Source of the DNA: a virus
Lineage: Duplodnaviria > Heunggongvirae > Uroviricota > Caudoviricetes
Length of the DNA stretch: 34,714 nucleotides
Virus record (IMG/VR): IMGVR_UViG_2740892487_000001
Reading direction: 5' to 3' (one strand)
The notes beneath the pieces are model-generated. The model was not told the origin of the DNA. It searched no databases and was given only the letters and a program-made list of their open reading frames with translations. Made by a program: the position numbers and the translations under genes. Of this stretch, positions 1-21,369 are shown one piece after another; the first letter of the stretch is position 1; the number at the start of each line of letters is the position of its first letter.

Positions 1-157
1 CATAATAGCGCTGAGGTCTGCCTCGTGAAGAAGGTGTTGCTGACTCATACCAGGCCTGAATAGCTTCATCATCCAGCCAGAAAGTTATGGAGCCACGGTT
101 GATGAGGGCTTTATTGTAGGTGGGCCAGTTGGTGATTTTGAACTTTTGCTTTGCCAC
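1..157 (-). CDS. IS903-family transposase, 5' portion (GTG start at 157; truncated by window edge)
   Basis: Minus-strand translation from GTG reads (M)AKQKFKITNWPTYNKALINRGSITFWLDDEAIQAWYESATPSSRGRPQRY, recalled as the IS903 transposase N-terminus. No ATG in frame; GTG start inferred. Confidence 0.7.
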   Translation of the reverse strand, partial: MAKQKFKITNWPTYNKALINRGSITFWLDDEAIQAWYESATPSSRGRPQRYY

Positions 158-234
158 GGAACGGTCTGCGTTGTCGGGAAGATACGTGATCTGATCCTTC
201 AACTCAGCAAAAGTTCGATTTATTCAACAAAGCC
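1..234 (-). mobile_element. IS903-group (IS5 family) insertion sequence, terminal part; inverted repeat at 216-234, element continues beyond window start
   Basis: Reverse complement of 216-234 is GGCTTTGTTGAATAAATCG, which I recall as the IS903 terminal inverted repeat; the adjacent minus-strand reading frame matches the IS903 transposase N-terminus. Confidence 0.75.
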
Positions 235-337
235 TATCATACAATGTGTTGACTCAATTTTATGGCACGGAACAACTTTTAGAATGAATGTGATAGAATC
301 ACGCGAAATTTCGCATTATATGTAGAGAGAAAACTTA

Positions 338-2340
338 ATGCTTAAGTATAGGAAAGAGCTTGATGGATTGCGTTGTTTGGCAGTGATGGCTGTCATCATT
401 TATCACTCTGGCATTTCTTTGTTTGGAGTAAAGATATTCAAAGGCGGATTCTTTGGAGTTGATGTCTTCCTGGTTCTTTCAGGATATTTAATTACAGATA
501 TCATTATAAATAAACTTGATAGCCGCTCTTTCTCACTAACTGACTTCTATTGGAGACGCATAAAGAGAATTGTTCCTGCTCTTATTGCTATGCTTGTAGT
601 TACATCGATAGTGGCTTATAAAATTCTTCTACCAAATGACTTAGTAAAATTCTCTGAATCTCTCATTTCTGCTATTTATTTTGGTTCTAATTATTATTTT
701 CTTGGTGAAGATAGCTATGTATCAAATGCAAGTATATTTAAACCACTCCTTCATACATGGAGTCTTGCTGTTGAATGGCAATTCTACGTATTTTATCCAT
801 TCTTATTGATTTTTATAAATAAATTTATTAAGAAATACAGAGTATTACTTCTTATATTGATTTCTGTTTCATCTATTGTGTATGCAAATATTATAGTTAG
901 CAGTTACCCTGACTTAGCATTCTATACGCTACTACCAAGGGCATGGGAATTAATTCTTGGTGGAATTGTGTCTTTTTTTTGTAAAAGAAAGAAGAAGCAA
1001 TATACATAAAGACCAATCATCTTTAACTTCGTTTCTGCCAGTAATTGGAATGTTGATGATTGTTTATTCAATGTTGTTTTTTGGAAATAACATCAAACAC
1101 CCTTCATTTATCACCCTAATACCTGTAGCTGGTTCATGTTTGATAATCGCATTTGCAAATGGTGCCGATTTAATATCTAAAATATTATCCTTGCGTCCGA
1201 TTGTCTTTATTGGCTTGATATCATATTCTCTATATTTATGGCATCAACCTGTTTTTGTTTTTTACAGGATATTATTTAGTGAAAATATCACTCCTTATTA
1301 CTGTGTAGTATTAGCATCAATTTCAATTGTTATTTCGTCTTTTTTCATATTTTTTTATTGAAAAACCATATAGAGCAAAACATGTTAAAAGTAAGAATAC
1401 AATAGTATTAGCAACATCTCTGTCAGCATTGCTTGCTTTCTCTATTTATGCAAAGGCCGATGGGGGTTTTCAGTGGCGTCTTGCAGGCATTCTGAAAGAA
1501 ACCTATGAAATGTACAAAGAACCAGAGTTCAGGAAATTGGCAGATTATTCAAATATTGGTAAAAGTTTAAGAGGTGAACCTGATAGTTATTTATGTGGTT
1601 TACGTTCTCTTGATAACCCGTGTAGCTTTGGCGGTGATGACATCATCGTATTAGGAGATAGCTATGCTGGACAATATGCACCAACAATTTTAGATTACTC
1701 AAAAGAAAATAACAAAGGGATGTTATCTCTCACGTATGAGCAATGTCCATTTGTGAGTGATATGTGGTTTGGCAATGTTCCTGAATGTGTGGTTGTCAAT
1801 GAGCAAAGATGGAAAGCCATTGATTCTCTTAAGGGGAAGAAAACTATTTTTATAGCTGCTAATTATGATCAATTCCCGCTTGCTAAGGCTCCTGTGTCAT
1901 CTCCTTTAGAGATGGCGAAGCAAAATTTTAGTGGCGGAGATTTTTTAGGTGGCGAGCAGGCATATATCTCTCTATCGAATAATGTTAAGAAACTCGTGTC
2001 CAAGGGGCATGATGTATATATTGTATACCCAACCCCTAATCCTTCTGAAGATGTTGCCAACATAGTATTCTCAAAACTAAGATCTATCAATTATAAGTTT
2101 GAGACAACATACACAAGCAGCAGAAATGGGCTTAACTTAGCAAAACAACAATCCGATATATTAGATAAATATATTCCTGACATGAAAGGATTGCATAAGA
2201 TAAAACCTATAAAAACTTTATGTGATGACAATGGTTGTAGAATAATTGACCATAACGGCGGATTATATAATGTTGGTTTTCACTTATCTAAATCTGGTGT
2301 TAAAGAAATACTTAATGATAACGGCTTTGTAATTAATTAG
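338..2340 (+). CDS. Membrane O-acetyltransferase (acyltransferase-3 domain, OafA/Oac-like) with C-terminal SGNH-type domain; frame broken twice at T-runs (973-980 and ~1339-1354)
   Basis: The three track ORFs 338-1009, 957-1361 and 1327-2340 join if one T is removed at each run. N-terminus MLKYRKELDGLRCLAVMAVIIYHS and multiple hydrophobic segments are typical of acyltransferase-3; the C-terminal part contains GDSYAG. Visibly AT-rich. Confidence 0.7.
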
Positions 2341-2370
2341 TTTATTTTGTCCACCAACATTATCAATACT

Positions 2371-2402
2371 AAAAAAACAGCGGCAATTTCGCCGCTGTTT
2401 TT
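2371..2402. terminator. Bidirectional intrinsic terminator between the convergent acetyltransferase and tailspike genes
   Basis: A7 - CAGCGGC - aatttc - GCCGCTG - T5: GC stem flanked by A-run and T-run, placed between two convergent stop codons. Confidence 0.7.
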
Positions 2403-4348
2403 ATATAAAATAAGTAACAGAACCAATTATCTCAGCATTATTACCTAGAACATTTAGTTGTACATTCATATTACCAGCGACAGATGTAGCTCCTGTAAAT
2501 GTTATGTAATTACTTTCAGCATCAACCCTAGGCAATAGCGCAGCCACAGCCGTAGTTAAGTTATTGTAATACCCAATAGATCCAACAGAAGTAGCCCCTG
2601 GTCGTGACAAAAAAAGGTAATCCACCTATCCTATAACCATCTCCACTTCCAATAATCGTTATCCCTATGTGAAAACTTGCGGTCACTACATCACCAGTTC
2701 TTGTATAACTTCCAACTTGTTTATAGTAGGAGGCATTTCCGCCTACAGTCGGAATCCAAACTCCAGTTTCTATATCACCACACGACCAGTCTTCTGCTGT
2801 TGTTAGTTTTCCAGTAACAATAAATTTACTTCCACCACCAGAATTATAAGGAACAAAAATTGGTTTTATTCTTGCATAAGTGTTACCGATCTGCTCATTA
2901 AGATCATTTCTATCAATAAGAACTTGACCATTTTCGAAGTTTGAAATCTGGCAGTCTGTTACACTCCAGTCTCTTAACTTCACATCAGCATCCATGACAC
3001 CAATAAGCTTACCAGCATTACCAATTTTTTCTTTATGCATATTTACATACACATTTCTTACCGTAACAGACTGAGGGAACAAATAATTATCAGGATTAGT
3101 TTTATCACTTAAAACAGATATTACCCAAGGTCTGTGTTGAGTACTTACTTCACAATAAAATCCATCAATAAGCGTTCCAGATGCCGCTGGTCCAAGTAGT
3201 ATTCCACCTGTAGAGTGATGCGCACTACCTCCAATTACTCGCCCCTTAACGCAGTTAATATAGGCAAAATATCCTAAATCTTGATTGTTATATGCTGCCA
3301 TGGCGCAATCTCTTATTGTAACTCTAGAGTTCCCACCATCATATGCACTGCCATCCGTTTTTTTACCAGGTAAAGAAATGAAATTACCTATTGCAATATC
3401 ACTAAAAAATGTTTTTTTATAGCATCCTTCTATAAGGATATCCCAGTTTTCAAACTGAGCATATATATCATAAGAATCCTTATTACCATAATCAATAAAA
3501 TCACAATATTGTATTTTTGGTGTAAAAACAAAGCTCTTTACCATTATTCCAAACTTTGCATTTTGACCACCAGTGAATCTAATTCCATAAATTACATAAT
3601 CACCTTGATAAAAATTATCTGCTGTTGGTTGATCTTCGTCAGTTGGATCTCCACACTTAACTGCAGCGTCAGTTCCAGTATAGTTTATTGTTGCTCCTTT
3701 AAAAGAGTATAAAGTAACAGGTCTAATTAAATTCAATGACTCGCTAATAAGATAATTTCCATCTGGAAAGTACACGGATACTGGTGGAGAATATTTAGGT
3801 CTTGTGTTAACGTAATCTTTAAGTTTGAGCACCGCAGCATCATCATTCGTGCCATCACCTTTAAACCCAAAGTCTTTCGCGCTCACAAAATCTGCATTTT
3901 TATCGTGCTGTGCTCTCTCGATTGCCATAGAGAGGGGTTGTTTTACACGAACAACTGAATCATCAACTAATAATGGCCCATTTTCAGATAGCAATCTTTC
4001 CTGAAATTGATCAGGGTCATATTTCAGCACATTAGGGAAATAGAACTGCTGCGTGCCATACGCATCATATACAGCCATAGAATGGCCTTGCACAGTTACG
4101 AATTTGGCAATCTGCCCGTTATATACCGGATATCCAGCAGCGTTAATGATGATTGGCTGTGCAACAGAAACGTGAGAGCCGTCTTCGTTTTCCACATAAA
4201 CCTGAATCTGGTTTTCAGGATTTACAGGGTCAGTGTCAATTTTACCGATATAAATTTTGCCATTGGCTACGGCTTTAAAAGAACGAGCCATAGTGAAGAG
4301 TTGCGAAGGCATGCTTACCACAACATTGGCATTTATTGAATCTGTCAT
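2401..4348 (-). CDS. Tailspike protein: P22-like head-binding N-terminal domain plus a different beta-helix-like receptor-binding/depolymerase domain; frame broken at A7 (2608-2614)
   Basis: N-terminus [60 protein letters not shown] closely matches the P22 gp9 head-binding domain as I recall it; the rest diverges. ORFs 2561-4393 and 2401-2625 join if the run is A6. Confidence 0.85.
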
Positions 4349-4434
4349 TTTAATTTCTCTATATGTTAAGCAAGCAATATTCATTGCTAGCATGTTTTTG
4401 TATAATGAGTGAACTTTATTTAAAGGTGGTTAAC

Positions 4435-4945
4435 ATGAACTGGAACGAAGTATTCGTATTAAAAGACGATGGACTCCTGTACTGGAGTGACCAATATCTT
4501 TCAAGACCCAAAATGTTCAATATCTCTAAAGAAAAGCCTGCAGGACATATATTCAAGGACAAGAACAGGAAAACATCTTATATAATTATCAGGTATCAAG
4601 ATAAAATATACGCCGCCCATAGGATAATATGGGAAATGTTTTATGGTGAAATCCCTTCAGGAATGCAAATTGACCATAAAGATGGTAATGGGTTAAATAA
4701 TTCAATAGACAACCTGCGTCTAGTTAGTCTCGGTGAAAACCTAAAAAAACAAATCTAAATACACAAACAATACATCCGGGTGCGCAGGTGTTTCATGGCA
4801 TAAGACCCATAAAAAGTGGGTGGCATATATTAGCGACGCAGGGAAGCGCATTAATCTCGGATACTTTAAGTGTCTCGATGATGCAATTGCTGTAAGGCGT
4901 GAGGCTGAAAAGACCTATGGTTATCATGAGAATCATGGTAGGTGA
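4435..4945 (+). CDS. HNH endonuclease with C-terminal AP2 DNA-binding domain (homing-endonuclease-like); frame broken at A7 (4743-4749)
   Basis: HNH motif QIDHKDGNGLNNSIDNLRLVS; after the stop at 4758 the +1 frame continues NTSGCAGVSWHKTHKKWVAYISDAGKRINLGYFKCLDDAIAVRREAEKTYGYHENHGR (AP2-like). Shine-Dalgarno-like AAAGGTGG before the ATG at 4435. Confidence 0.7.
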
Positions 4946-5054: not shown

Positions 5055-5957
5055 TCAGTAGTTATGTACTGAAGGAGGTAATTCTTTATTCTTAAGTCTC
5101 ATCCATGCGGAAAGATTCGTTGGTCCGTCTGGCTCATTAATATCAACATCTCGTGTGTGGTTTATTAAAACGTCTCTCGCCATTCCGATAACATACGAGA
5201 ATTCATGACCGTAGTCGTAGCATCTGCCGGAATAGTTCGATTGAATTTGTTTTAATGCCGGATACAGTTCGCGGAATAATGCCTGTGAGCGGTTGGCATA
5301 ATCCCATAGCCATACAAGGCTGTTTGCTTCTTTTGCAGAAAGCTCGTTGGTTTTCTTCTCTTGTTTGCCGATGAACTCGCCTTCAAGCACTACCCTGTGG
5401 ATGTACTCTACTGCTTGCGGTATCTGAGATGAATCAAGCTCTTCAATACTTTCCACGTTGAAACGCTGATGAATCATTGCATAAGCTTCTGGGTACATTA
5501 GATGCTTTTTGCTGACTAGCATATTTACAGCATCACGAAGCGGAGTCCTGTCATCAACAGATGTTTTCTTACGTGCATTTTCTGCCTTTCCCTTCGTCCA
5601 GTAGTCATGCAGCACAGTAAAGCATTCTTCCTGGTACTGAATCAGTTTATCGCGGATGTCAGCACGAACTTTCTCAGGGTTGATGCTGAACAGCCATCCA
5701 TTTAACTTCTTCAAAGGAAGGCAGAGTAGCCTACGAAGCTTACCATCAGCGGCAACCATGTTCATATGAACACAGTTGAATTTGCTAATCTGCTTCATGA
5801 GTTTTGTTTGCTGCGTTGACCAGCTCATTCCAAGGTTTTTAACGATTGGCTTCATCGCAACATATGCAACTCCGGCAGTCATGGCGGTGATAATCTGCTG
5901 ACCATTGAAAGGTACGTAAGAGGTGTTCACTGCTTCTAAAATTGCTATACTATTCAT
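5055..5957 (-). CDS. ant: Antirepressor Ant (P22 immI type; N-terminal part conserved, C-terminal half divergent)
   Basis: From the ATG at 5957: [39 protein letters not shown]..., recalled as the P22 Ant N-terminus; sits directly downstream of arc as in P22. Confidence 0.85.
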
Positions 5958-6025
5958 GTTGGTTTTTCTCCACGAATTTACTGACAACAGAAGCCCTGAC
6001 TGTTCCCGCAGTTGGGGCTTCAACT

Positions 6026-6187
6026 TTACGCGCCAATACGCCCTTCCTTCTTAAAGCTGTCCATTACTCTCTGATAAATCTCAGAGTTAACAGACCGACC
6101 ATTCTCTTCCGCCACCTTGCGTACCAAATCCAATACTTCTTTAGGCCACCGCAAATTGAACTGCGGCATTTTGCTCATTCCTTTCAT
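6026..6187 (-). CDS. arc: Arc repressor (ribbon-helix-helix)
   Basis: [53 protein letters not shown] is near-identical to P22 Arc as recalled. Confidence 0.95.
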
Positions 6188-6201
6188 GTTCACCTCACAA
6201 T

Positions 6202-6222
6202 ATAGGTCCACGGTGGACCTAT
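6202..6222. promoter_or_regulatory. Mnt operator (O_mnt), perfect palindrome
   Basis: ATAGGTCCACGGTGGACCTAT, recalled as the P22 mnt operator; lies between divergent arc and mnt. Confidence 0.85.
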
Positions 6223-6229
6223 TGAGAAT

Positions 6230-6250
6230 ATAGTAGAGTGCTTCTATCAT
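6230..6250. promoter_or_regulatory. Arc operator (O_arc) / Pant region
   Basis: ATAGTAGAGTGCTTCTATCAT, recalled as the P22 arc operator; immediately upstream of arc. Confidence 0.85.
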
Positions 6251-6277
6251 GTCAATACACTAACTTGGAGTGATGGC

Positions 6278-6532
6278 ATGGCTAGAGATGATCCGCACTT
6301 TAACTTCCGCATGCCTTTGGAAGTAAGAGAAAAATTAAAATACAGAGCAGAGTCAAATGGTAGATCAATGAACTCAGAATTGTTGCAAATCGTCCAAGAT
6401 GCTCTATCGAGACCATCTCCTGTAAAAGGTTATCGCAATGAAGCTGAACGATTAGCCGAGATGCAGGCTGAACAGTTCAAGTCTGTGGTATTTGAGACAC
6501 TTAAAAACATGTATGGCAAGGATGCAAAATGA
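6278..6532 (+). CDS. mnt: Mnt repressor (ribbon-helix-helix)
   Basis: MARDDPHFNFRMPLEVREKLKYRAESNGRSMNSELLQIVQDALSRPSPVKGYRNEAERLAEMQAEQFKSVVFETLKNMYGKDAK matches P22 Mnt as recalled. Confidence 0.95.
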   Translation: MARDDPHFNFRMPLEVREKLKYRAESNGRSMNSELLQIVQDALSRPSPVKGYRNEAERLAEMQAEQFKSVVFETLKNMYGKDAK

Positions 6533-7847: not shown

Positions 7848-9694
7848 CTACTGCCGGGTCGCTTCGTTAGCTAAGAGCGGGCGCACGGCAGTAGCAGCCT
7901 GATTTAGCGCTCTTTCATAAGCTGGCGTTCCAGCTTTAGTGTTTGCCAGACGTAAGAGCGCATTCCTTGCTGCTTTGGACTCATACAAACGCATCATTGC
8001 ACCGAAACCAGCCTCAAGCCCCATTGATACGCCAAGAGTCGCAGTTGCGCCAATCGTCCTTATCCTGTTGGCTTGAGATTGCCCCGTCTGAGTTACTACA
8101 TTTGCGGTGTCTGATCTTGCTGTTTGCTGTAGAACTTCATGAAGAGCATCAAGTTCTTTCATGTGCTTTCCAGAAAAAATAGTGTTGTAAATTTCACCGC
8201 CTGACTGAGATTTCAGCTTATTAACTTCCGTGATGAACTTGGCTGGAGAGTCACCGGCCTTTTCCGCTATTTTGCTGACGTAAGCTGCACGCATAGCATC
8301 TTTCCCTTTATCATCCAATGCGCTCCAGATTCGTTTCACGTCAGATGGTTTTCTGCTTAATACAACGGTATTTATAAGTTCAGGACTGGCTTCACTGTTT
8401 GCCTTGTTGAGCTTGTTAGCAATGTTTTTATTAAGCACCTTATTATAAACGTTTGCATAATCGGAATTTGCTTTAAGGTATTTTGCTGCGTCTGACGCAC
8501 CGAGGTTTTTTGCAACTGCGTTACGAAGGTCTTTTGACATTGCATTCTCTACCATATTGGTAGCTGCTTTTGCCTGGTTGGGGAAGACCATAGCATCTCC
8601 CTGAACATTAGATCTAAATGCTGTTCTGTGCTGACGCAATAGATCAAACGTAACATCCAAATCAGTTGCAGGGTTTGCTAATTCTTCACGTAGGTTACGC
8701 AAGGATGTAAGCAGGCTTTGATTGGCTGAAGTCCCAAGCCGTTCCTGTCTTGCGATCGCTGTATTCAGAGCATTCATGGTATTTGTGGTATCAACTGCGG
8801 CATTACCCATTTTATTGGTGACGTCATTGATAACAGCGCCAGCAGCATCCTTCCGCCCCCTTAACGTGGTGGTCAGAGATTTCACCACATCATCAGGGTT
8901 GTACTCACCAAAACGGTCAAAATAATTGCTTACCAGCTTACTACGCGTTGCATATTGCTCCGCTCGCTTTGAGCCTGTCCCGAGCAAAGCCCCCTCGGCA
9001 TCCTGAGTAAGGCCGCGAGTGAAAGCATTTTTCGGCGGGATAACATCAGATGTCATTGGTGTCACACCCATTGATTCTGAGGTGGCAATTTTTTTTTTTT
9101 CGCTACTTCTGGCGCGATATCGCCTTTTATAGCCGTTATTCCACGCCCTATTCCCTTTGCTGCTGCGGAAAGAACACCCTGAGCGGCAAGGTTAACTCCG
9201 GCATTTATGGCTGCATTTTGCGCGAAATCACCTTTCTGGTTTGCGGCTTCTGCCAGTGATCCAATAGCCATGCTTCCTGCCGTTCCAACTCCTGGAACTA
9301 AATACCCGCCAATTGTTTCTCCAGCTTGCGCATAAGGGTCTGTCGGTCGATCGACAGGGCGATAAACATCATCCAAAACCTTGGGACCACCAAGACCCTG
9401 GCTGATTGCATTAATCAGACTTGCGCCACCCTGCAATACGTCAAATGGTATGTTTACCAGACCACGACCAGCCTGCTCTGCAATTTGCCCTGCACTTTGA
9501 CCACCTGTGAGCCAATCGCCAGCTTGTTGCATCAATGATGGTTCTTCCTGTGTTGGTGCATTATTGGCCTGATTAACTGTTTGTTGCTGAACAGCCTGAC
9601 CAGCAAAATACTCATCAATGGCGGTGCCAATATCTTCGGTGCTCGTACCATCAGGAAAGGTAAATGTCTTACCGTTTGCAGTTACTTTCATCAT
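7848..9694 (-). CDS. Ejection (injection) protein gp16-like; frame broken at the T12 run 9089-9100 (A-run encoding KKKK on the coding strand)
   Basis: N-terminus [32 protein letters not shown] resembles P22 gp16; ORFs 9062-9694 and 7848-9071 join with a length change in the homopolymer. Confidence 0.8.
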
Positions 9695-11157
9695 TCCACC
9701 GTAAATTGAATGCCTGATTTTGAGGTATATGATCCGGATTGACTCTGCTGCGGTTGGGTATTTGTCGGTTGTTGGCTATTGCTCTGTTGTTGACTATTTG
9801 CAGCACTTGAAACCACCAAAGCATCATAAACGCGACCAGACTGACCACGTAACGAGTTATATTGGCCCTGCATTTTTCGCATTTTTGTTTCAGTAGCAGC
9901 CTTGGAATCACCGGGCTGAGGCAGGTACATTTTGGAATACTCCTGCATCTCTGGCAGAGTAATTGCTGCACCTGTTTCTGGGCGCAAAATTGCATACAAG
10001 GCGTCTCTCGCATTTACCATATATTGCTGCTCCGCTGGTGATAGGCTTAAATTTGCAATAGTCCCATCACCAAGAGAGCGATTTATTAATGCAACTCGCT
10101 TAGGGTCAATGCTTTTACTAAGCTGATTCATTGAGTCCATTGAATCTTTTAATCGCAAAGCAAATCCTGCCGCCTTCTTGGAACCCTCATTAGCCTTATC
10201 TATGATGCTTTGCGCTTGTGGCAAGCTAATTGGTTTAATGCCATCACCAGATATAGGTTGGTTTAGTTTTCCGGCTTCCTCGCTGCCATCGGTGTAATAC
10301 TTAGTTACCGAGCCATCAGGATTGGTTTCAACCTTAAGTAATTTCTTAGCATTGGGATTAATTCCCGCCGCTGCCGCAAATGCTGCTGCACCATCTGGAT
10401 CCGCCTTTAACATTTGCGCGTACTGATTGTAATTCTGCATTGCGGCTGTTGGTGCATATGCTGACGTTAACGCATTTGCTCGGCTAATATCCTGCCCTCT
10501 CGCCTGAAGTGCTTCGCTGGCCTGATTGCTGCGGATTGTCTCTGCCAGCCTGCCTCGGTCAATTTCACGACCAGCCATCTTATCCTGAACATTGAAGTAA
10601 TCAATCGGACCAAGCGCGGCCATTCCAAGGTGATCAACAAACTCACCAAATCCTGAAGGATTCTGCTGATACATCTGAGCAACGTTATTAGGGTCAACAC
10701 CGACGCGCGCCAGCTCATTGGCGTTGTTTTGCAGCCATGATTGCATTGCTTCTGGAGACGATGACGCAAGGCGTGCGCCAGCCGCTAAGGTGCCGATAGA
10801 ATTACGCTGATCTTCATCAATGAATCCCATGCCTTTACGAACGGATTCAATCTGGTCTGGATATTGAGTAGCCAACTGACGCAAAGCACCGCGATCACCA
10901 GACGCATAAGCATTAGCGTACGCCTGCTGAAATTCTTTCTGCCGCTGAGCCTGCTTTTCCTGCTGAAACACCCCTGCAATACCTGAAAGACCTTGCAAAG
11001 CAGTCAGCCCAACATTGTTAGCGCCTGAACGCTCAATATCATTGTTCTGCCTGATAAGCTGAAGCGTATTGCCGATGTCATTTACGCTCGGAGCGTTTGA
11101 GTTGACGCCGCCGATACCAGCTAACAATCCACCATTTGATCCTTGCCAAGTAGCCAT
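9691..11157 (-). CDS. Ejection protein gp20-like
   Basis: 488-aa ORF in the P22 gene-20 position between the gp7 and gp16 homologs; assigned by gene order and size. Confidence 0.75.
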
Positions 11158-13269: not shown

Positions 13270-14687
13270 TACTCAATCCTTATCTGGCAGCCAGACAGAG
13301 TGACAGGTGACTTAGTGATAACGCGCAATTTGAAGCCAACATTTTTCCTGATGCGCCCTACTCGCTTCCACAAAACGCGTTTGTCGTAAACGAACGGTTC
13401 ATTCTGCTCAATCATCTGCTCACGACAGTAATTGATGCCATCAGTGGTTGCCGAGAGGAACAGGCGGTCGGCGTACTGAGCAACACCCGTCGATGATTCC
13501 ACCTCCAGATCAAAGCATCTGGCGTTATCTGCTTTGAAGAGTGGAGTAAACAGCAGGTGTTCTTGCTGTAGCCCATACTGGCTGCTGATATCGAACTGCA
13601 ATTTCCCGGTCACGGACTCCAGCTTATCGCCGCACGTTATCTGATTGCCTTCGTAAATGAAGTCAATGGCGCGGTACACATCGTCATACAGGCCTGTTTT
13701 CAGTACACACCATTGCGGAGCATTGGCGCTTGAAGATGCGTCGTACACCAGAACATGGCGCGGAAGATGGATAATCAGCAGCTCATGAGCATCAAAGCGC
13801 AACGATTCCATCACGCCATCAGCCAGTTCATCAGCAGTGTAGGAGCGGAGGATTTTCTCAATGCTCGCGCTGGCGATTGGTGACACCTGCCCGGAGCCGA
13901 TGATATACACAGACGGCGCACCTGTTGCCGGATTGCTGATGAACGCATACGAATCAGCAAACTGCGTTTTGCAGTAGGTTCCGGCAATGCCTTTCTGCAC
14001 CATCAGCGATGGCTGTGCGACATACAAAGCAGCACCAACGGTGGTTGCGCCAGTCAGGGAGAAATATTCAATCGTCGATGAACCAAAGCAGACGATGAAG
14101 TCTCGCCATGTTCCGATGCCGATGATACCGTCCGGCTGCGATTCTGCGCGATATTGTGCGCTGTATCGGTCAGGGTGCGATTCGTCTTCAAGGTCAGTGA
14201 TAAACCATGAATCAGTACCGTCTTTTGACCACGCATAACGCCCACGTAAGCGCGTAATGTCGCGAACTGAACCTAACTCGTACTGTGTGAATCCGCTGTC
14301 AGTAGGCCAGTTTGAGACGGTTTTAACCGTGCCATCATAGCGGTATTCGACCAGTTGACCATTAACGCCTACCGCCTGTGATGTCCTACCATGCGCCATT
14401 GATACACGACCACTTCCGGCGACGTCACCGACTTCGCTTTCACCCTTATACAACTTGCCACCGCAAACGCGATAAACAGCATTCTGCGCCATGTTGTACT
14501 CGACTCCGCGCGATACACCGTTCACATCAGAACGTTTGGCAATGCCCGGGAATGAGCGAAGATATCCGCTGCTGTTCAGGATTTCTTTGGGTGTAGCCAG
14601 CATATTCACTGGCAGATAGTCGATATAGTCGGCGTTTCGAAAGTCTTTGCCGACACCTTTCATAAGCGGAAGTTGCTGAATCGGCAT
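13269..14687 (-). CDS. Tail accessory protein gp10-like
   Basis: 472-aa ORF, the same length as P22 gp10, in the conserved position between gp4 and gp26. Confidence 0.8.
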
Positions 14688-15165
14688 TTATTCGCTCCCG
14701 TTATCGCAAGGTTCCTTCCGGTGGAAGTAATTCCAACCGTTCCACTTCGCCAACTGGTTACCACTACCAACAGGCATACGGTTTGGATAACCGGACTTAC
14801 ATTTAGCGGCTTTTGCTCTGTCCATTGCAGACAGTTTGACGAGTCGCTCTTTCCCGTATCTGGCAGTGGTTATAAGTTTTGCAGGCGCTTCCAGCGCATA
14901 ATCCGGTGCAATGCGGCAGGCAAGGTTGAAAATAACAGCATTGATAGCGTTATTTGATAAACCGTGCTCATCGCCCGGATCTGGAGCGACATCTGCATCA
15001 GCGAAAATGTAGCCAACGCTGATACCAGGTGACACATCACCGCCAAGCCATTCAGCCATCATCATTTCAAGGTCGTTGACGCCGTCTTCCATAGACTGCG
15101 GTTCGACATCGGTTAACGTGGCATTTGATGCCACACCGAGCTTACGTAATGCTGCAAGGACTAAA

Positions 15166-15188
<23 letters not shown>
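14688..15188 (-). CDS. Tail accessory / head-completion protein gp4-like
   Basis: From the ATG at 15188: [33 protein letters not shown]... matches P22 gp4 as recalled. The upstream (SQ)n extension in the track ORF is the alternative frame of the hexamer repeat. Confidence 0.85.
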
Positions 15189-15438
<250 letters not shown>

Positions 15439-15450
15439 GCTTGTCTCCAG

Positions 15451-15474
15451 ATAAAAAAGGGAGCCGAAGCTCCC
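15451..15474 (-). terminator. Intrinsic terminator-like hairpin immediately downstream of the coat gene
   Basis: Minus strand reads GGGAGC-TTCG-GCTCCC followed by T6, starting 9 nt after the coat stop codon. Confidence 0.6.
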
Positions 15475-15482
15475 TCTGGTTA

Positions 15483-16778
15483 TCACGCAGTCTGGTTAGG
15501 CAGACCAACACCAATTGCCTCTGGTCGTACAGCACATGCTGAATACCACACAGCAATACGGCACTTACCAGACAGAGTGTTGATATCACCCTGCGTTGCG
15601 AAGATGCCGTTAACACCAATGCCAGGAATGCTGAAGGAAGAAGTTTTCATGCCCGCAAACAGTTCATGGGTTACCGGGATCGGCTGAGACAGTAGGCGGA
15701 TTGAGTCATCAGCCCAGAACACGTTAGCGGTGGTTGTTGCCACGTTCAGAACGTTTACCGGAGTGGTATCAGCAAGAGATGTGTTTACATTAGCGTAAGC
15801 CTTCTCTTCTTTTGTCAGTGACGCGTCATCCAGTGCAATCGGTTTCGGCGTGATTTCGATGTGAGTACCATCGATCACACGGGTGATTGAGAAAGTCGCA
15901 TCATCAGTCAGCACGTTCTTCGCCATCTGAGATAGGAATTTCACACCAGTGAAGCTGATTTTGTCGCCGCGCTTAAATCCGGTGGTGGAGGATACGGTCA
16001 CCGTTGCAACACGGTTGTCGACGTTCTCTTTGTTACCATCAGTATCAAGGGTGTATGCCTGCGGCTTAAACTTCTGCGCACCAGAAACAGTTACACCAGT
16101 AGCGGTTGACTTGGTAACTGCAGGAAGTTTCGGTGAGCGAAGAATTTCATCAAAGCCAGCAATCTGACGCTGAATAGTACCGTTGCGATAAGCTTCTTCA
16201 GGAACGCGCCCAAAGATGTCACCATCTACCAGGTTGCGGCCTGCTTTGCGGTAATCGTCAGGGTTCAGGAAGTAACTGATGCCCATGTCGCGGTTGAGTT
16301 CGCGGGAGAACATCAGGCGCTCTGCATCAGACACAAAATCCCAGCCAGACAGGCCAGTAGATGGACCAATTGCGCGGGTATCGTGAACAACAAGTGAGCC
16401 CATTTCAGTTGCCTGTTTGGCAATCGCTGACTCAATGTTATTCGCCAGTTTTTTGGCAGATGCCTGGATGCGGCGACGGTAAGAACGCTCATCACGCAGG
16501 TCATCTGCACGAAGCTCGAAGAAATCGTTATCCGGATCACCCATGTTGCATTTCACGGAGAGTTCCAGAATCCCAGTAGCGTTGCCAGTTAAATCCCAGC
16601 CAGTCTGAGTTGGCGCTTCCTGCTCAACAGGCATCCACACGGTGTTGCTTGAACGTTGCATGGATTCTGCCGGAGGGGTGTATTTTGTCACTTTGGACGC
16701 CATTGGCGTCAGGTTCTGGACGGTTTCGATGATTTCATCCAGAGCATACGTGACCAGTTGACCTTCATTTAATGCCAT
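15483..16778 (-). CDS. Major coat protein (P22 gp5-like)
   Basis: [54 protein letters not shown]... with C-terminus [14 protein letters not shown] matches P22 coat protein as recalled. Confidence 0.95.
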
Positions 16779-19868: not shown

Positions 19869-21369
19869 TTAAGTTCTCCGTGCGATGGGCCTGATTGGGG
19901 CTGGTATCTTTTTCTCTTTTGGTTTTTTGATGTCGCGCATCATTTTTGCGAAGCGGCGCATCATGTATGCATAGCGAACGGCTGAGAGAACGTCATCGTT
20001 AAGCTTGACGATCTTCCCGTTTTCATCACGGTGATAGAGGCGGAACTCCTCAAAGAATGGCTCACAGGTGTTGAATACTTTGAAGCGTCCATCGAGCATC
20101 ATGTCGCGCAATTCAGTGATGCCAGGCTCAACAGCATTACCGCCATCAGGCCATGTCGCATGCTCCTGCAACATCATAAAACCAGCGTCCGCGTACTGCC
20201 CTTTAAGCTGCTCACCGCCGCCCTTCTCGTGCTGGTTTCCGTCATGAGGCCATGCGGTTGGCACTTTATGCGCCCAAGATTTAACGGCTCCCCACGCCTG
20301 AACGGCTGTTTTTTTCTTTCGCCTTCCACACGCGTGAAACGTAGATTGTGTCTGCGTCCTTATCCCACCAAAGCTGAACCTGCGCCTGCGGGTGATCCCA
20401 TCCGAAATCCATACCGCCAATTACGTAAAAGTGATCAGGGCACTCGAACGGCTGACACTTAATCGTCTCTTCCGGTATCTGGAAGATTCGCCCGCTACCC
20501 ATCGTAGGAATACCGCGAGCACGCGCCTCTCTCTCATGCTCAGGATAGGATGCGATGATTTGCTCTTTCTGCTCGTCGGTGTAGTGCTCAGCGTCATAGA
20601 TGGTCATGTTGACCACTTTCTGCGACTTGCTGGGATTCTTCAGGAACTTGGTAACAACGTCAGACATCCCCATCAGCGGGGTAAACGTCAGAATTGAGAA
20701 TTGCCCGTATTTGTTGGTACGGGTAAGCCCTTCGCCATAAATGCTGTATGGTGGTTCTTCGTCAAACCACACACCGTGGATTGTGTCACCCTGCCAGCGA
20801 GCACGGCCTTGCGAGTATGGTTTGAAGTAGCAGATTGAAATACCATCTTCAACGCCATCAGCCGTGTGATGCTTAACCAGAAGATGATCAACAAGGTTCG
20901 GAAAGAAAGGAGACTTCTTCCAGCTAATGATGTCCTCTTTCGGTATGGAACCGTAGCCTGGCTCACCATTCTCTTCGATACGACCGCACAGGATGCGTTG
21001 AGTCGTTTTGGTTACAGTCTCGTTTGTCTCTCCACCAATCCAGAAGACAACAGGCTCATAGAAACGCTTACCTTTCCACTCACCGCCATATTTACCATCA
21101 GCAGGATAGCCTTTTGTGCCCGGATAACGACCGGTAAGGTGAAACGCGACTTCAGCAGCACCAGTAAATGACTTACCAAGCTGGTTACCAGCCATAAAAC
21201 ATCGCTCTGGATAGTCATGCCCGGCGTCGATGAACTCACGCTGCTTGCTGTATGGCGTAAATTCATATAGCAGGTGTGTGTTCCGGTAGTTCTCTTCTTC
21301 TTCGAGTAGCTCGAGCAACTCGATTTGCTCTTCGTCGCTCAGGTTATCAAGAATCGCGTCCAGTTCCAC
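19869..21369 (-). CDS. Terminase large subunit; frame broken at T7 (20309-20315)
   Basis: ORFs 20281-21369 and 19869-20420 join if the run is one base shorter; position and size match the large terminase. Confidence 0.85.

Follow-up and report, generated by a model that had tools for sequence, protein, structure and literature searches.

Why should a phage carry a gene for a membrane acyltransferase directly against the gene for its tailspike? The question is raised by positions 338 to 4,348 of the virus record IMGVR_UViG_2740892487_000001, a stretch of 34,714 nucleotides from a tailed phage (Caudoviricetes) which is referred to here in its full length as the window. An initial annotation, made from the sequence letters, had read this pair of genes as a lysogenic conversion gene that modifies the phage's own receptor next to the tailspike that binds it. 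Computational follow-up points to a host-range and lysogenic-conversion cassette of a P22-like (Lederbergvirus-type) Escherichia coli prophage that integrates at argW. In this reading, which is given a probability of roughly 0.7, a tailspike for the O7 antigen is paired with an enzyme that acetylates O7.

Layout of the two genes

The locus holds two convergent genes, an acyltransferase gene on the plus strand and a tailspike gene on the minus strand. The acyltransferase gene (338..2340) encodes, after correction, an AT3-SGNH membrane acyltransferase of 666 amino acids (aa) which is predicted to be an O-antigen O-acetyltransferase. In the window its reading frame is broken into three plus-strand open reading frames (ORFs), 338..1009, 957..1361 and 1327..2340. 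The tailspike gene (2401-4348) encodes 648 aa and is split into the minus-strand ORFs 2401..2625 and 2561..4393. Its true start codon, at 4346-4348, was fixed by the corrected translation. The same DNA is present intact in two complete E. coli chromosomes, those of strain 81 (NZ_CP088131, 99.9%) and Br_167_kylling (NZ_CP182378, 99.2%; Br_167 hereafter). In both the products are annotated as "acyltransferase family protein" (666 aa) and "phage tailspike protein" (648 aa), and the corrected acyltransferase is identical to WP_060618123.1. The guanine-cytosine (GC) content is 0.334 in the acyltransferase gene, 0.363 in the part of the tailspike gene that encodes the receptor domain, 0.424 in the head-binding part and 0.479 in the rest of the window. 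Overall the window has a GC content of 0.46.

The convergent layout and a shared bidirectional terminator had both been proposed, and both were confirmed. The terminator scan (minus strand), the flanking A-run and T-run, and folding all placed an intrinsic terminator hairpin at 2373..2402 that acts on both strands. It has the form AAAAAACAGCGGC-loop-GCCGCTGTTTTT, with a GC-rich stem of 12-13 bp and a U-tract in either direction, and the stop codon of the tailspike gene (2401-2403) falls partly within it. Folding gave -21 kcal/mol on either strand, with z-scores of -6.3 (plus) and -3.9 (minus). The region upstream of the acyltransferase gene (235..337, plus strand) is 99-100% conserved in strain 81 and Br_167. 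A scan for the two-hexamer promoter consensus found no site upstream of this gene; inspection by eye picked out a candidate extended -10 promoter, TGATAGAAT, at 292-300. The Shine-Dalgarno sequence preceding the ATG at 338 is weak.

Frameshifts in the window

Homopolymer frameshifts had been noted in both genes, and they are present in the sequence as given. The acyltransferase gene has +1 frameshifts at a T8 tract (973-980) and a T6 tract (1340-1345), and the tailspike gene has one at an A7 tract (2609-2615). Each of the three tracts is one base longer in the window than in strain 81 and Br_167. The cassette differs from strain 81 solely by these three extra bases, and when they were deleted the translations became identical to the intact strain 81 proteins. 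Further +1 sites in A/T homopolymers, relative to strain 81 and Br_167, lie at 4743, 6549, 6572, 7408, 8506, 20315 and 29679, and the T6 of strain 81 is a T12 in the window at 9089 (9089-9100). There are thus at least 11 such A/T homopolymer insertions across the window, in unrelated genes. Over 7.4 kb the window and strain 81 differ by seven gaps and two substitutions. As this excess is one-directional, confined to homopolymers and spread over the whole window, with substitutions rarer than indels, the three frameshifts are most likely read or assembly errors which are not specific to these genes. Both genes would then really be intact.

Two other explanations of the frameshifts were weighed. 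The genes could be pseudogenes of a dead prophage damaged by an insertion sequence (IS), with the cassette a decaying remnant. In its favour, the cassette adjoins the end of an IS903B element and intS does not occupy the position that it has in relatives, the sister prophage in strain 81 is clearly degraded (ISSen4, a large deletion and frameshifted genes), and E. coli B still contains relics of this receptor domain. This explanation is considered unlikely. All of the at least 11 indels found against near-identical relatives are A/T homopolymer insertions scattered over many genes, the ratio of two substitutions to seven indels is an error signature and not a mutation spectrum, and without the extra bases the proteins are 100% identical to intact ones.

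A phase-variation switch that governs both receptor modification and the tailspike, in the manner of the neuO repeats of phage CUS-3, is far less probable still. The frameshifts do sit in tracts (T8, T6 and A7), and in CUS-3 a phage-borne receptor O-acetyltransferase, presumably beside the tailspike at argW, is phase-variable. Two independent frameshifts within the acyltransferase gene cannot form a switch, however. The same +1 pattern is found in unrelated genes throughout the window, the tracts are short, and the intact relatives have a single tract length. The 103 bp that precede the acyltransferase gene (235-337) contain no GATC site, and no OxyR-type element lies upstream of the gene. The gtrC gene of Salmonella phage BTP1 is not phase-variable (PMC4413052). 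A contingency locus of the neuO type or of the Dam/OxyR gtr type was therefore rejected, on the two shifts in one gene, the window-wide pattern and the missing GATC. Sequencing error remains the preferred explanation. Given that the homopolymer errors are systematic, other split ORFs in the window (e.g. 7848-11157 and 19869-21369) are suspect as well, and pseudogene calls in this assembly are not to be trusted.

The tailspike

The tailspike consists of a P22-type head-binding domain (residues 1-116; 4000..4348, minus strand) and a receptor-binding part (residues ~117-648; 2401..3999, minus strand) in which a right-handed beta-helix is followed by a C-terminal beta-sandwich. The head-binding assignment of the initial annotation was fully supported. 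The Pfam family Head_binding (PF09008) matched residues 4-114 (E 8e-65, 216.6 bits), and PDB matches to this domain ranged from E 3e-74 to 3e-45, with Sf6 gp14 at E 3e-74 and the P22 tailspike at E 6e-49. At the nucleotide level, megablast against phages gave matches of 88-92% to HK620, Sf6 and CUS-3; these matches, and those to further P22-like phages, were confined to 4000-4359. A mosaic boundary lies at about 4000, where the GC content falls from 0.424 in the head-binding part to 0.363.

A different, beta-helix receptor domain had also been predicted, and structure prediction of the C-terminal part together with Foldseek agreed. Pfam placed the start of a pectate-lyase-like beta-helix at residues 154-259. 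In the AlphaFold2 (AF2) model the predicted local distance difference test score (pLDDT) was mostly above 85 for residues 150-648, which formed the right-handed beta-helix and the beta-sandwich. Foldseek matched the receptor domain with probability 1.0 to the tailspikes of Det7, Sf6, HK620 and CBA120, and the top structural neighbours (Det7 gp208, Sf6 and HK620) shared only 10-14% identity with it. A phmmer search of the PDB found no tailspike match past residue ~184, and no PHROGs family covers the receptor domain (~530 residues). At the sequence level the domain is outside the characterised families of P22, Sf6, HK620, CUS-3 and Det7.

The description of this domain as new holds in part. It is uncharacterised but not unseen: 52 complete E. 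coli genomes contain it, and gp63.1 of phage St11Ph5 has 56.5% identity to it. The family is small, with 30 clusters among 5.8 billion proteins. It is also modular, with relatives located behind T7-tail (PF03906) or Tail_spike_N (PF18668) N-termini.

The acyltransferase

The second gene had been described as an AT-rich, OafA-like enzyme with a fused SGNH-type domain, and its GC content, Pfam domains and motifs bear this out. Acyl_transf_3 (PF01757) matched residues 6-332 (E 2e-35, 122.8 bits against a gathering cut-off of 31). The family PF19040, "SGNH domain fused to AT3 domains", matched residues 425-657 (E 6e-26, 92.2 bits against a cut-off of 27). The AT3 plus SGNH architecture is kept in all 120 acyltransferase homologues listed. 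In PHROGs the whole protein belongs to phrog_6705, "O-antigen acetylase", a moron family (best match E 4e-144). A partial NCBIfam match to mycobacterial SucT fell far below threshold (124 bits against a cut-off of 1275), and that identity was rejected.

The AT3 motifs of OafA were located as R12-X10-H23 in transmembrane helix (TMH) 1, the loop GGFFGVD at 36-42 and the RxxR motif R74-I-K-R77. Further OafA-type residues are S117 in the loop between TMH3 and TMH4 and E341 after TMH10. All of these AT3 motifs and residues are invariant or nearly so in an alignment of 30 family sequences, in which the SGNH serine (GDS, 439-441) and H648 are invariant. Three cysteine pairs (419/428, 469/483 and 628/633) parallel the OafA pairs 383/397, 439/453 and 567/572. 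Mutagenesis of Salmonella OafA by Pearson et al. covered these motifs and residues, including the conserved cysteine pairs, and most were needed for activity (PMC7448272).

No PDB match was obtained by phmmer with the single acyltransferase sequence, and a family profile was needed to reach one. A profile of 30 homologues gave as its sole PDB match 6SE1, the periplasmic domain of OafB from Paratyphi A (E 5.7e-6), and none to the peptidoglycan enzymes of the OatA type. The AF2 model (pLDDT 90.4) has ~11 transmembrane helices, the last of which leads to the periplasm, and an alpha/beta periplasmic domain. Its best Foldseek match in the PDB was again 6SE1, with a target-normalised TM-score of 0.65, and domains of the PatB type matched far more weakly. 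The best full-length relatives among isolated phages (31% identity) are the gtrC/oac genes of the Salmonella P22-like phages BTP1, g341c, SPC32H and SPN9TCW. Outside E. coli the nearest homologues listed, from Buttiauxella, Pragia and Cedecea, are 57-61% identical. A gene of GC 0.33 in a window of 0.46, with such distant outside homologues, fits horizontal acquisition.

It might be asked whether the enzyme modifies another glycan, such as peptidoglycan, enterobacterial common antigen, colanic acid, capsule or the core of the lipopolysaccharide (LPS), and adjoins the tailspike gene because this is the usual insertion site for morons. Many glycans are substrates of AT3 and AT3-SGNH enzymes (PMC9558356), the identity to any characterised enzyme is only ~31%, and an O-acetyl group on O7 is undocumented in the literature searched. 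Another glycan is nevertheless an improbable target. A match to a peptidoglycan enzyme or an unrelated acyltransferase was looked for, and the matches were instead to 6SE1, the O-antigen acetylase PHROG and Salmonella gtrC/oac. The sole solved relative, by profile and by fold, is thus an O-antigen enzyme, and the AT3-SGNH features of OafA and OafB are kept, the three cysteine pairs included. The homologues are also repeatedly convergent with tailspikes of differing specificity, as expected if the substrate is the receptor of the tailspike.

Association of the receptor domain with serogroup O7

Of 5426 complete E. coli genomes, 52 contain the receptor-domain DNA. The O7 wzy gene is present in 97 of the 5426, a background of 1.8%. 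All 52 carriers were checked against these 97 genomes and by direct inspection of the rfb region. Fifty-one of the 52 are O7, comprising 49 shown to be O7 and two derivatives of the O7 strain EC0026B. A full-length P22-type tailspike of this family is present in three genomes (strain 81, Br_167 and 2018-05-5CC), all with the O7 cluster. Because 51 of 52 carriers are O7 against the 1.8% background, and three prophage contexts are all O7, the receptor of the tailspike is most likely the O7 antigen. The possibility that the link is an artefact of an excess of E. coli B clones in the collection was rejected, as each of the three prophage contexts belongs to an O7 host. The acyltransferase has itself been seen in O7 genomes only (n = 2).

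The composition of the O7 repeat unit was taken from the gene content of the O7 cluster and from general knowledge. The cluster has genes for rhamnose, Qui4NAc, mannose and galactose functions. No O-acetyltransferase gene was found in it, so any O-acetylation of O7 must come from elsewhere, such as this prophage.

Remnants of the receptor domain were seen near bio/ybhB. In E. coli "C" (NZ_CP029371, 1311692-1316536) a relic of 445 aa lacks the head-binding domain and is convergent with a gene for a 381-aa AT3 acyltransferase. A second AT3 gene, of 341 aa, is convergent with a tail-fibre-assembly gene. The same relic locus is present in REL606, BL21 and other B strains, and these strains are of O7 descent.

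Recurrence of the pairing

The gene order argW (tRNA-Arg), intS, acyltransferase, convergent tailspike is intact in strain 81, in Br_167 and in a Logan contig. The Br_167 prophage appears complete. Its cassette matches that of the window (235-4359) at 99.2% identity, against 92-98% for the flanking phage DNA where this is present at all. This higher conservation suggests that the cassette travels as a unit.

The pairing is not limited to this phage type. A lambda-like prophage of Buttiauxella agrestis (JMPI01000030, 6001-9958) has a homologue of the acyltransferase with 61% identity, convergent with the gene for an unrelated tailspike of the Tail_spike_N type, so acyltransferase and tailspike are paired across phage types and across genera. 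Another E. coli has a 44% homologue, and the gene convergent with it is likewise unrelated and has only a weak, sub-threshold pectinesterase-like match. Direct comparison of the window tailspike with these two tailspike-like partners found no similarity. It is thus the pairing that recurs and not the receptor domain.

In 2018-05-5CC a tailspike allele that is 85% identical is paired convergently with a different acyltransferase. This 381-aa enzyme is AT3-only and has 28% identity to the window acyltransferase in the AT3 domain. An acyltransferase is therefore repeatedly paired with whichever tailspike is present, as would be expected if the enzyme modifies the receptor of the tailspike.

Comparison with known phages

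Conversion genes beside the tailspike are known in the P22 family from BTP1, Sf6 and CUS-3. What is modestly new here is that the tailspike can be assigned to O7, that there are two alternative acyltransferases, and that E. coli B has a relic.

The closest parallel is BTP1, a P22-like phage with the order int, gtrA, gtrC, convergent tailspike; g341c, SPC32H and SPN9TCW have equivalent genes. The enzymes are alike in having two domains and ~640-666 aa, and they share motifs and 31% identity over their full length with GtrC/OafB. GtrC of BTP1, now called OafB, acetylates the rhamnose of the O-antigen. By experiment the enzyme is both necessary and sufficient for a cell to be protected against BTP1, and it keeps the O-antigen from being shortened by the prophage's own tailspike (PMC4413052, PMC9558356). 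The systems differ in several ways. The BTP1 receptor is Salmonella O4/O12 rhamnose and the receptor here is most likely E. coli O7, the receptor domains of the tailspikes are unrelated, and the window cassette has no gtrA remnant. The DxxH aspartate is unconserved in the window enzyme, the function of which is predicted from sequence.

The head-binding domain of gp14 of Sf6, another P22-like phage, is closely related to that of the window. The oac gene of Sf6, which we take to lie between the tailspike gene and int, encodes an AT3-only enzyme without the SGNH domain, and the receptor domain of gp14 is 12-13% identical to the present one in a structure-based alignment. Oac is an O-antigen O-acetyltransferase and oac is a lysogenic conversion gene (PMC9558356).

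The E. coli P22-like prophage CUS-3 shares 90% nucleotide identity in the tailspike N-terminus. It presumably integrates at argW and carries neuO, for an O-acetyltransferase acting on its receptor (the K1 capsule), beside its endosialidase tailspike gene. NeuO is a soluble hexapeptide-repeat acetyltransferase, and it is phase-variable by heptanucleotide repeats. CUS-3 therefore combines a capsule receptor with a repeat switch, whereas the window has a membrane AT3-SGNH enzyme, no repeat switch and a predicted O-antigen receptor.

Among isolated phages, St11Ph5 (Gamaleyavirus) has the closest receptor domain, in its tailspike gp63.1, which aligns over 95% of the domain. St11Ph5 has an N4-like virion and a different tailspike N-terminus. 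Its host UP11 is O5, and infection is seemingly O-antigen independent (PMC5764931, PMC6393563).

Two further systems are close at hand. The P22-like prophage of 2018-05-5CC resembles the window in its O7 host, its tailspike and its acyltransferase convergent with the tailspike, and differs in its AT3-only partner. The E. coli B relic near bio likewise has an acyltransferase convergent with the tailspike, and it has lost the head-binding domain and has the 381-aa AT3-only partner.

Proposed role of the cassette

The tailspike would join the virion by its conserved N-terminal head-binding domain. The beta-helix domain would bind, and probably hydrolyse, O7 chains on the way to the outer membrane. 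A lyase mechanism is unlikely, since no gene for a uronic acid is among those for the O7 sugars. In a lysogenic cell, the AT3 domain would take acetyl groups from cytoplasmic acetyl-coenzyme A across the membrane through its pore, following the model for OafA and OafB (PMC7448272). On the periplasmic side, the SGNH domain would then pass the acetyl group on to a hydroxyl group of the O7 repeat. Acetylated O7 would be a poor substrate for this and related tailspikes, giving superinfection exclusion. The acetylation may also shield the LPS of the lysogen from free tailspike released on induction. What the analysis establishes directly is the domain architecture, the motifs, the layout, the intact state of both genes in relatives and the association of the receptor domain with O7; the acetylation itself, its sugar target, the cleavage of O7 and the exclusion are inferred. 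The proposal that the phage modifies its own receptor thus gains support from analogy, the O7 association and the recurrent pairing, with acetylation as its predicted step.

Several points weigh against this reading. The aspartate of the SGNH DxxH motif is not conserved and aligns with G646. Because the OafA D587A mutant retains ~10% activity, making Asp the least critical residue of the triad (PMC7448272), a Ser-His dyad may suffice for catalysis. At 31% identity to OafB the acceptor sugar or polymer is not readable from the enzyme, and the exact acyltransferase occurs in only two complete genomes, strain 81 and Br_167. Most carriers of the receptor domain are not independent, as they share one relic near bio. 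About three independent events are represented, and the O7 association is partly clonal. One carrier, TUM10008, which belongs to the relic class, is O11. Neither O-acetylation of the O7 antigen nor a tailspike specific for O7 turned up in the literature searches. The IS903B end may alter expression of the acyltransferase gene, and with genuine frameshifts neither gene would be functional in the source strain.

TUM10008 (NZ_CP135658, 888000-904000) has an O11 wzx/wzy cluster and is the sole non-O7 carrier of the receptor-domain relic. This suggests that its O-antigen locus was replaced after the prophage relic had become fixed.

A wider reading of the O7 cassettes is offered tentatively and is judged less probable than not. 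It holds that undescribed, prophage-made O-acetylated forms of O7 exist and that at least two unrelated acyltransferases, the 666-aa AT3-SGNH and the 381-aa AT3-only enzyme, were independently recruited beside allelic O7 tailspikes. The pairs would then record an arms race within the serogroup, with a fossil of it in E. coli B and BL21. The tailspike alleles, at 85% identity, may have diverged to cope with each other's modification.

Were the O7 assignment correct, this would be the first O7-specific tailspike and could serve as a typing or depolymerase reagent. Serogroup O7 includes extraintestinal pathogens such as O7:K1. The cassette would also predict a prophage-dependent O-acetyl variant of O7, with relevance to serotyping, glycoconjugate vaccines and the prediction of phage host range. 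Such a cassette, as a relic, would also account for two orphan genes near bio, "hypothetical" and acyltransferase, that E. coli B and BL21 carry.

Surrounding features of the window

The terminal part of an IS903B element (IS5 family) occupies 1..234 and is 99% identical to IS903B in ~1900 E. coli genomes. It was not mentioned in the initial annotation. The element ends 103 bp upstream of the acyltransferase ATG and replaces the sequence which leads back to intS in relatives. Homology to the strain 81 prophage begins at 235, which corresponds to 67 bp past the intS stop codon. The insertion may mark the loss of the integrase gene.

Between the tailspike gene and ant lies a gene for an HNH_3 homing-type endonuclease (4363-4875, plus strand; GC 0.36), the product of which is 169 aa in relatives. 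It is frameshifted in the window at the A7 tract at 4743. The gene is present in strain 81 and 2018-05-5CC and absent from Br_167, and is therefore a separate mobile insertion. The antirepressor gene (5055-6023, minus strand) has the P22 sar antisense RNA at its start (5958-6025, plus strand; Rfam, 91 bits). The tRNA and Rfam scans gave nothing beyond this RNA. Two Arc/Mnt-type genes lie beside the antirepressor gene, and 5055-6532 forms a P22-type immI region.

The sister prophage in strain 81 was compared with the window using its locus 13467-16562 against window positions 7636-32144. ISSen4 is inserted there and the counterpart of window positions 9152-32144 has been lost, with the acyltransferase and tailspike genes still intact.

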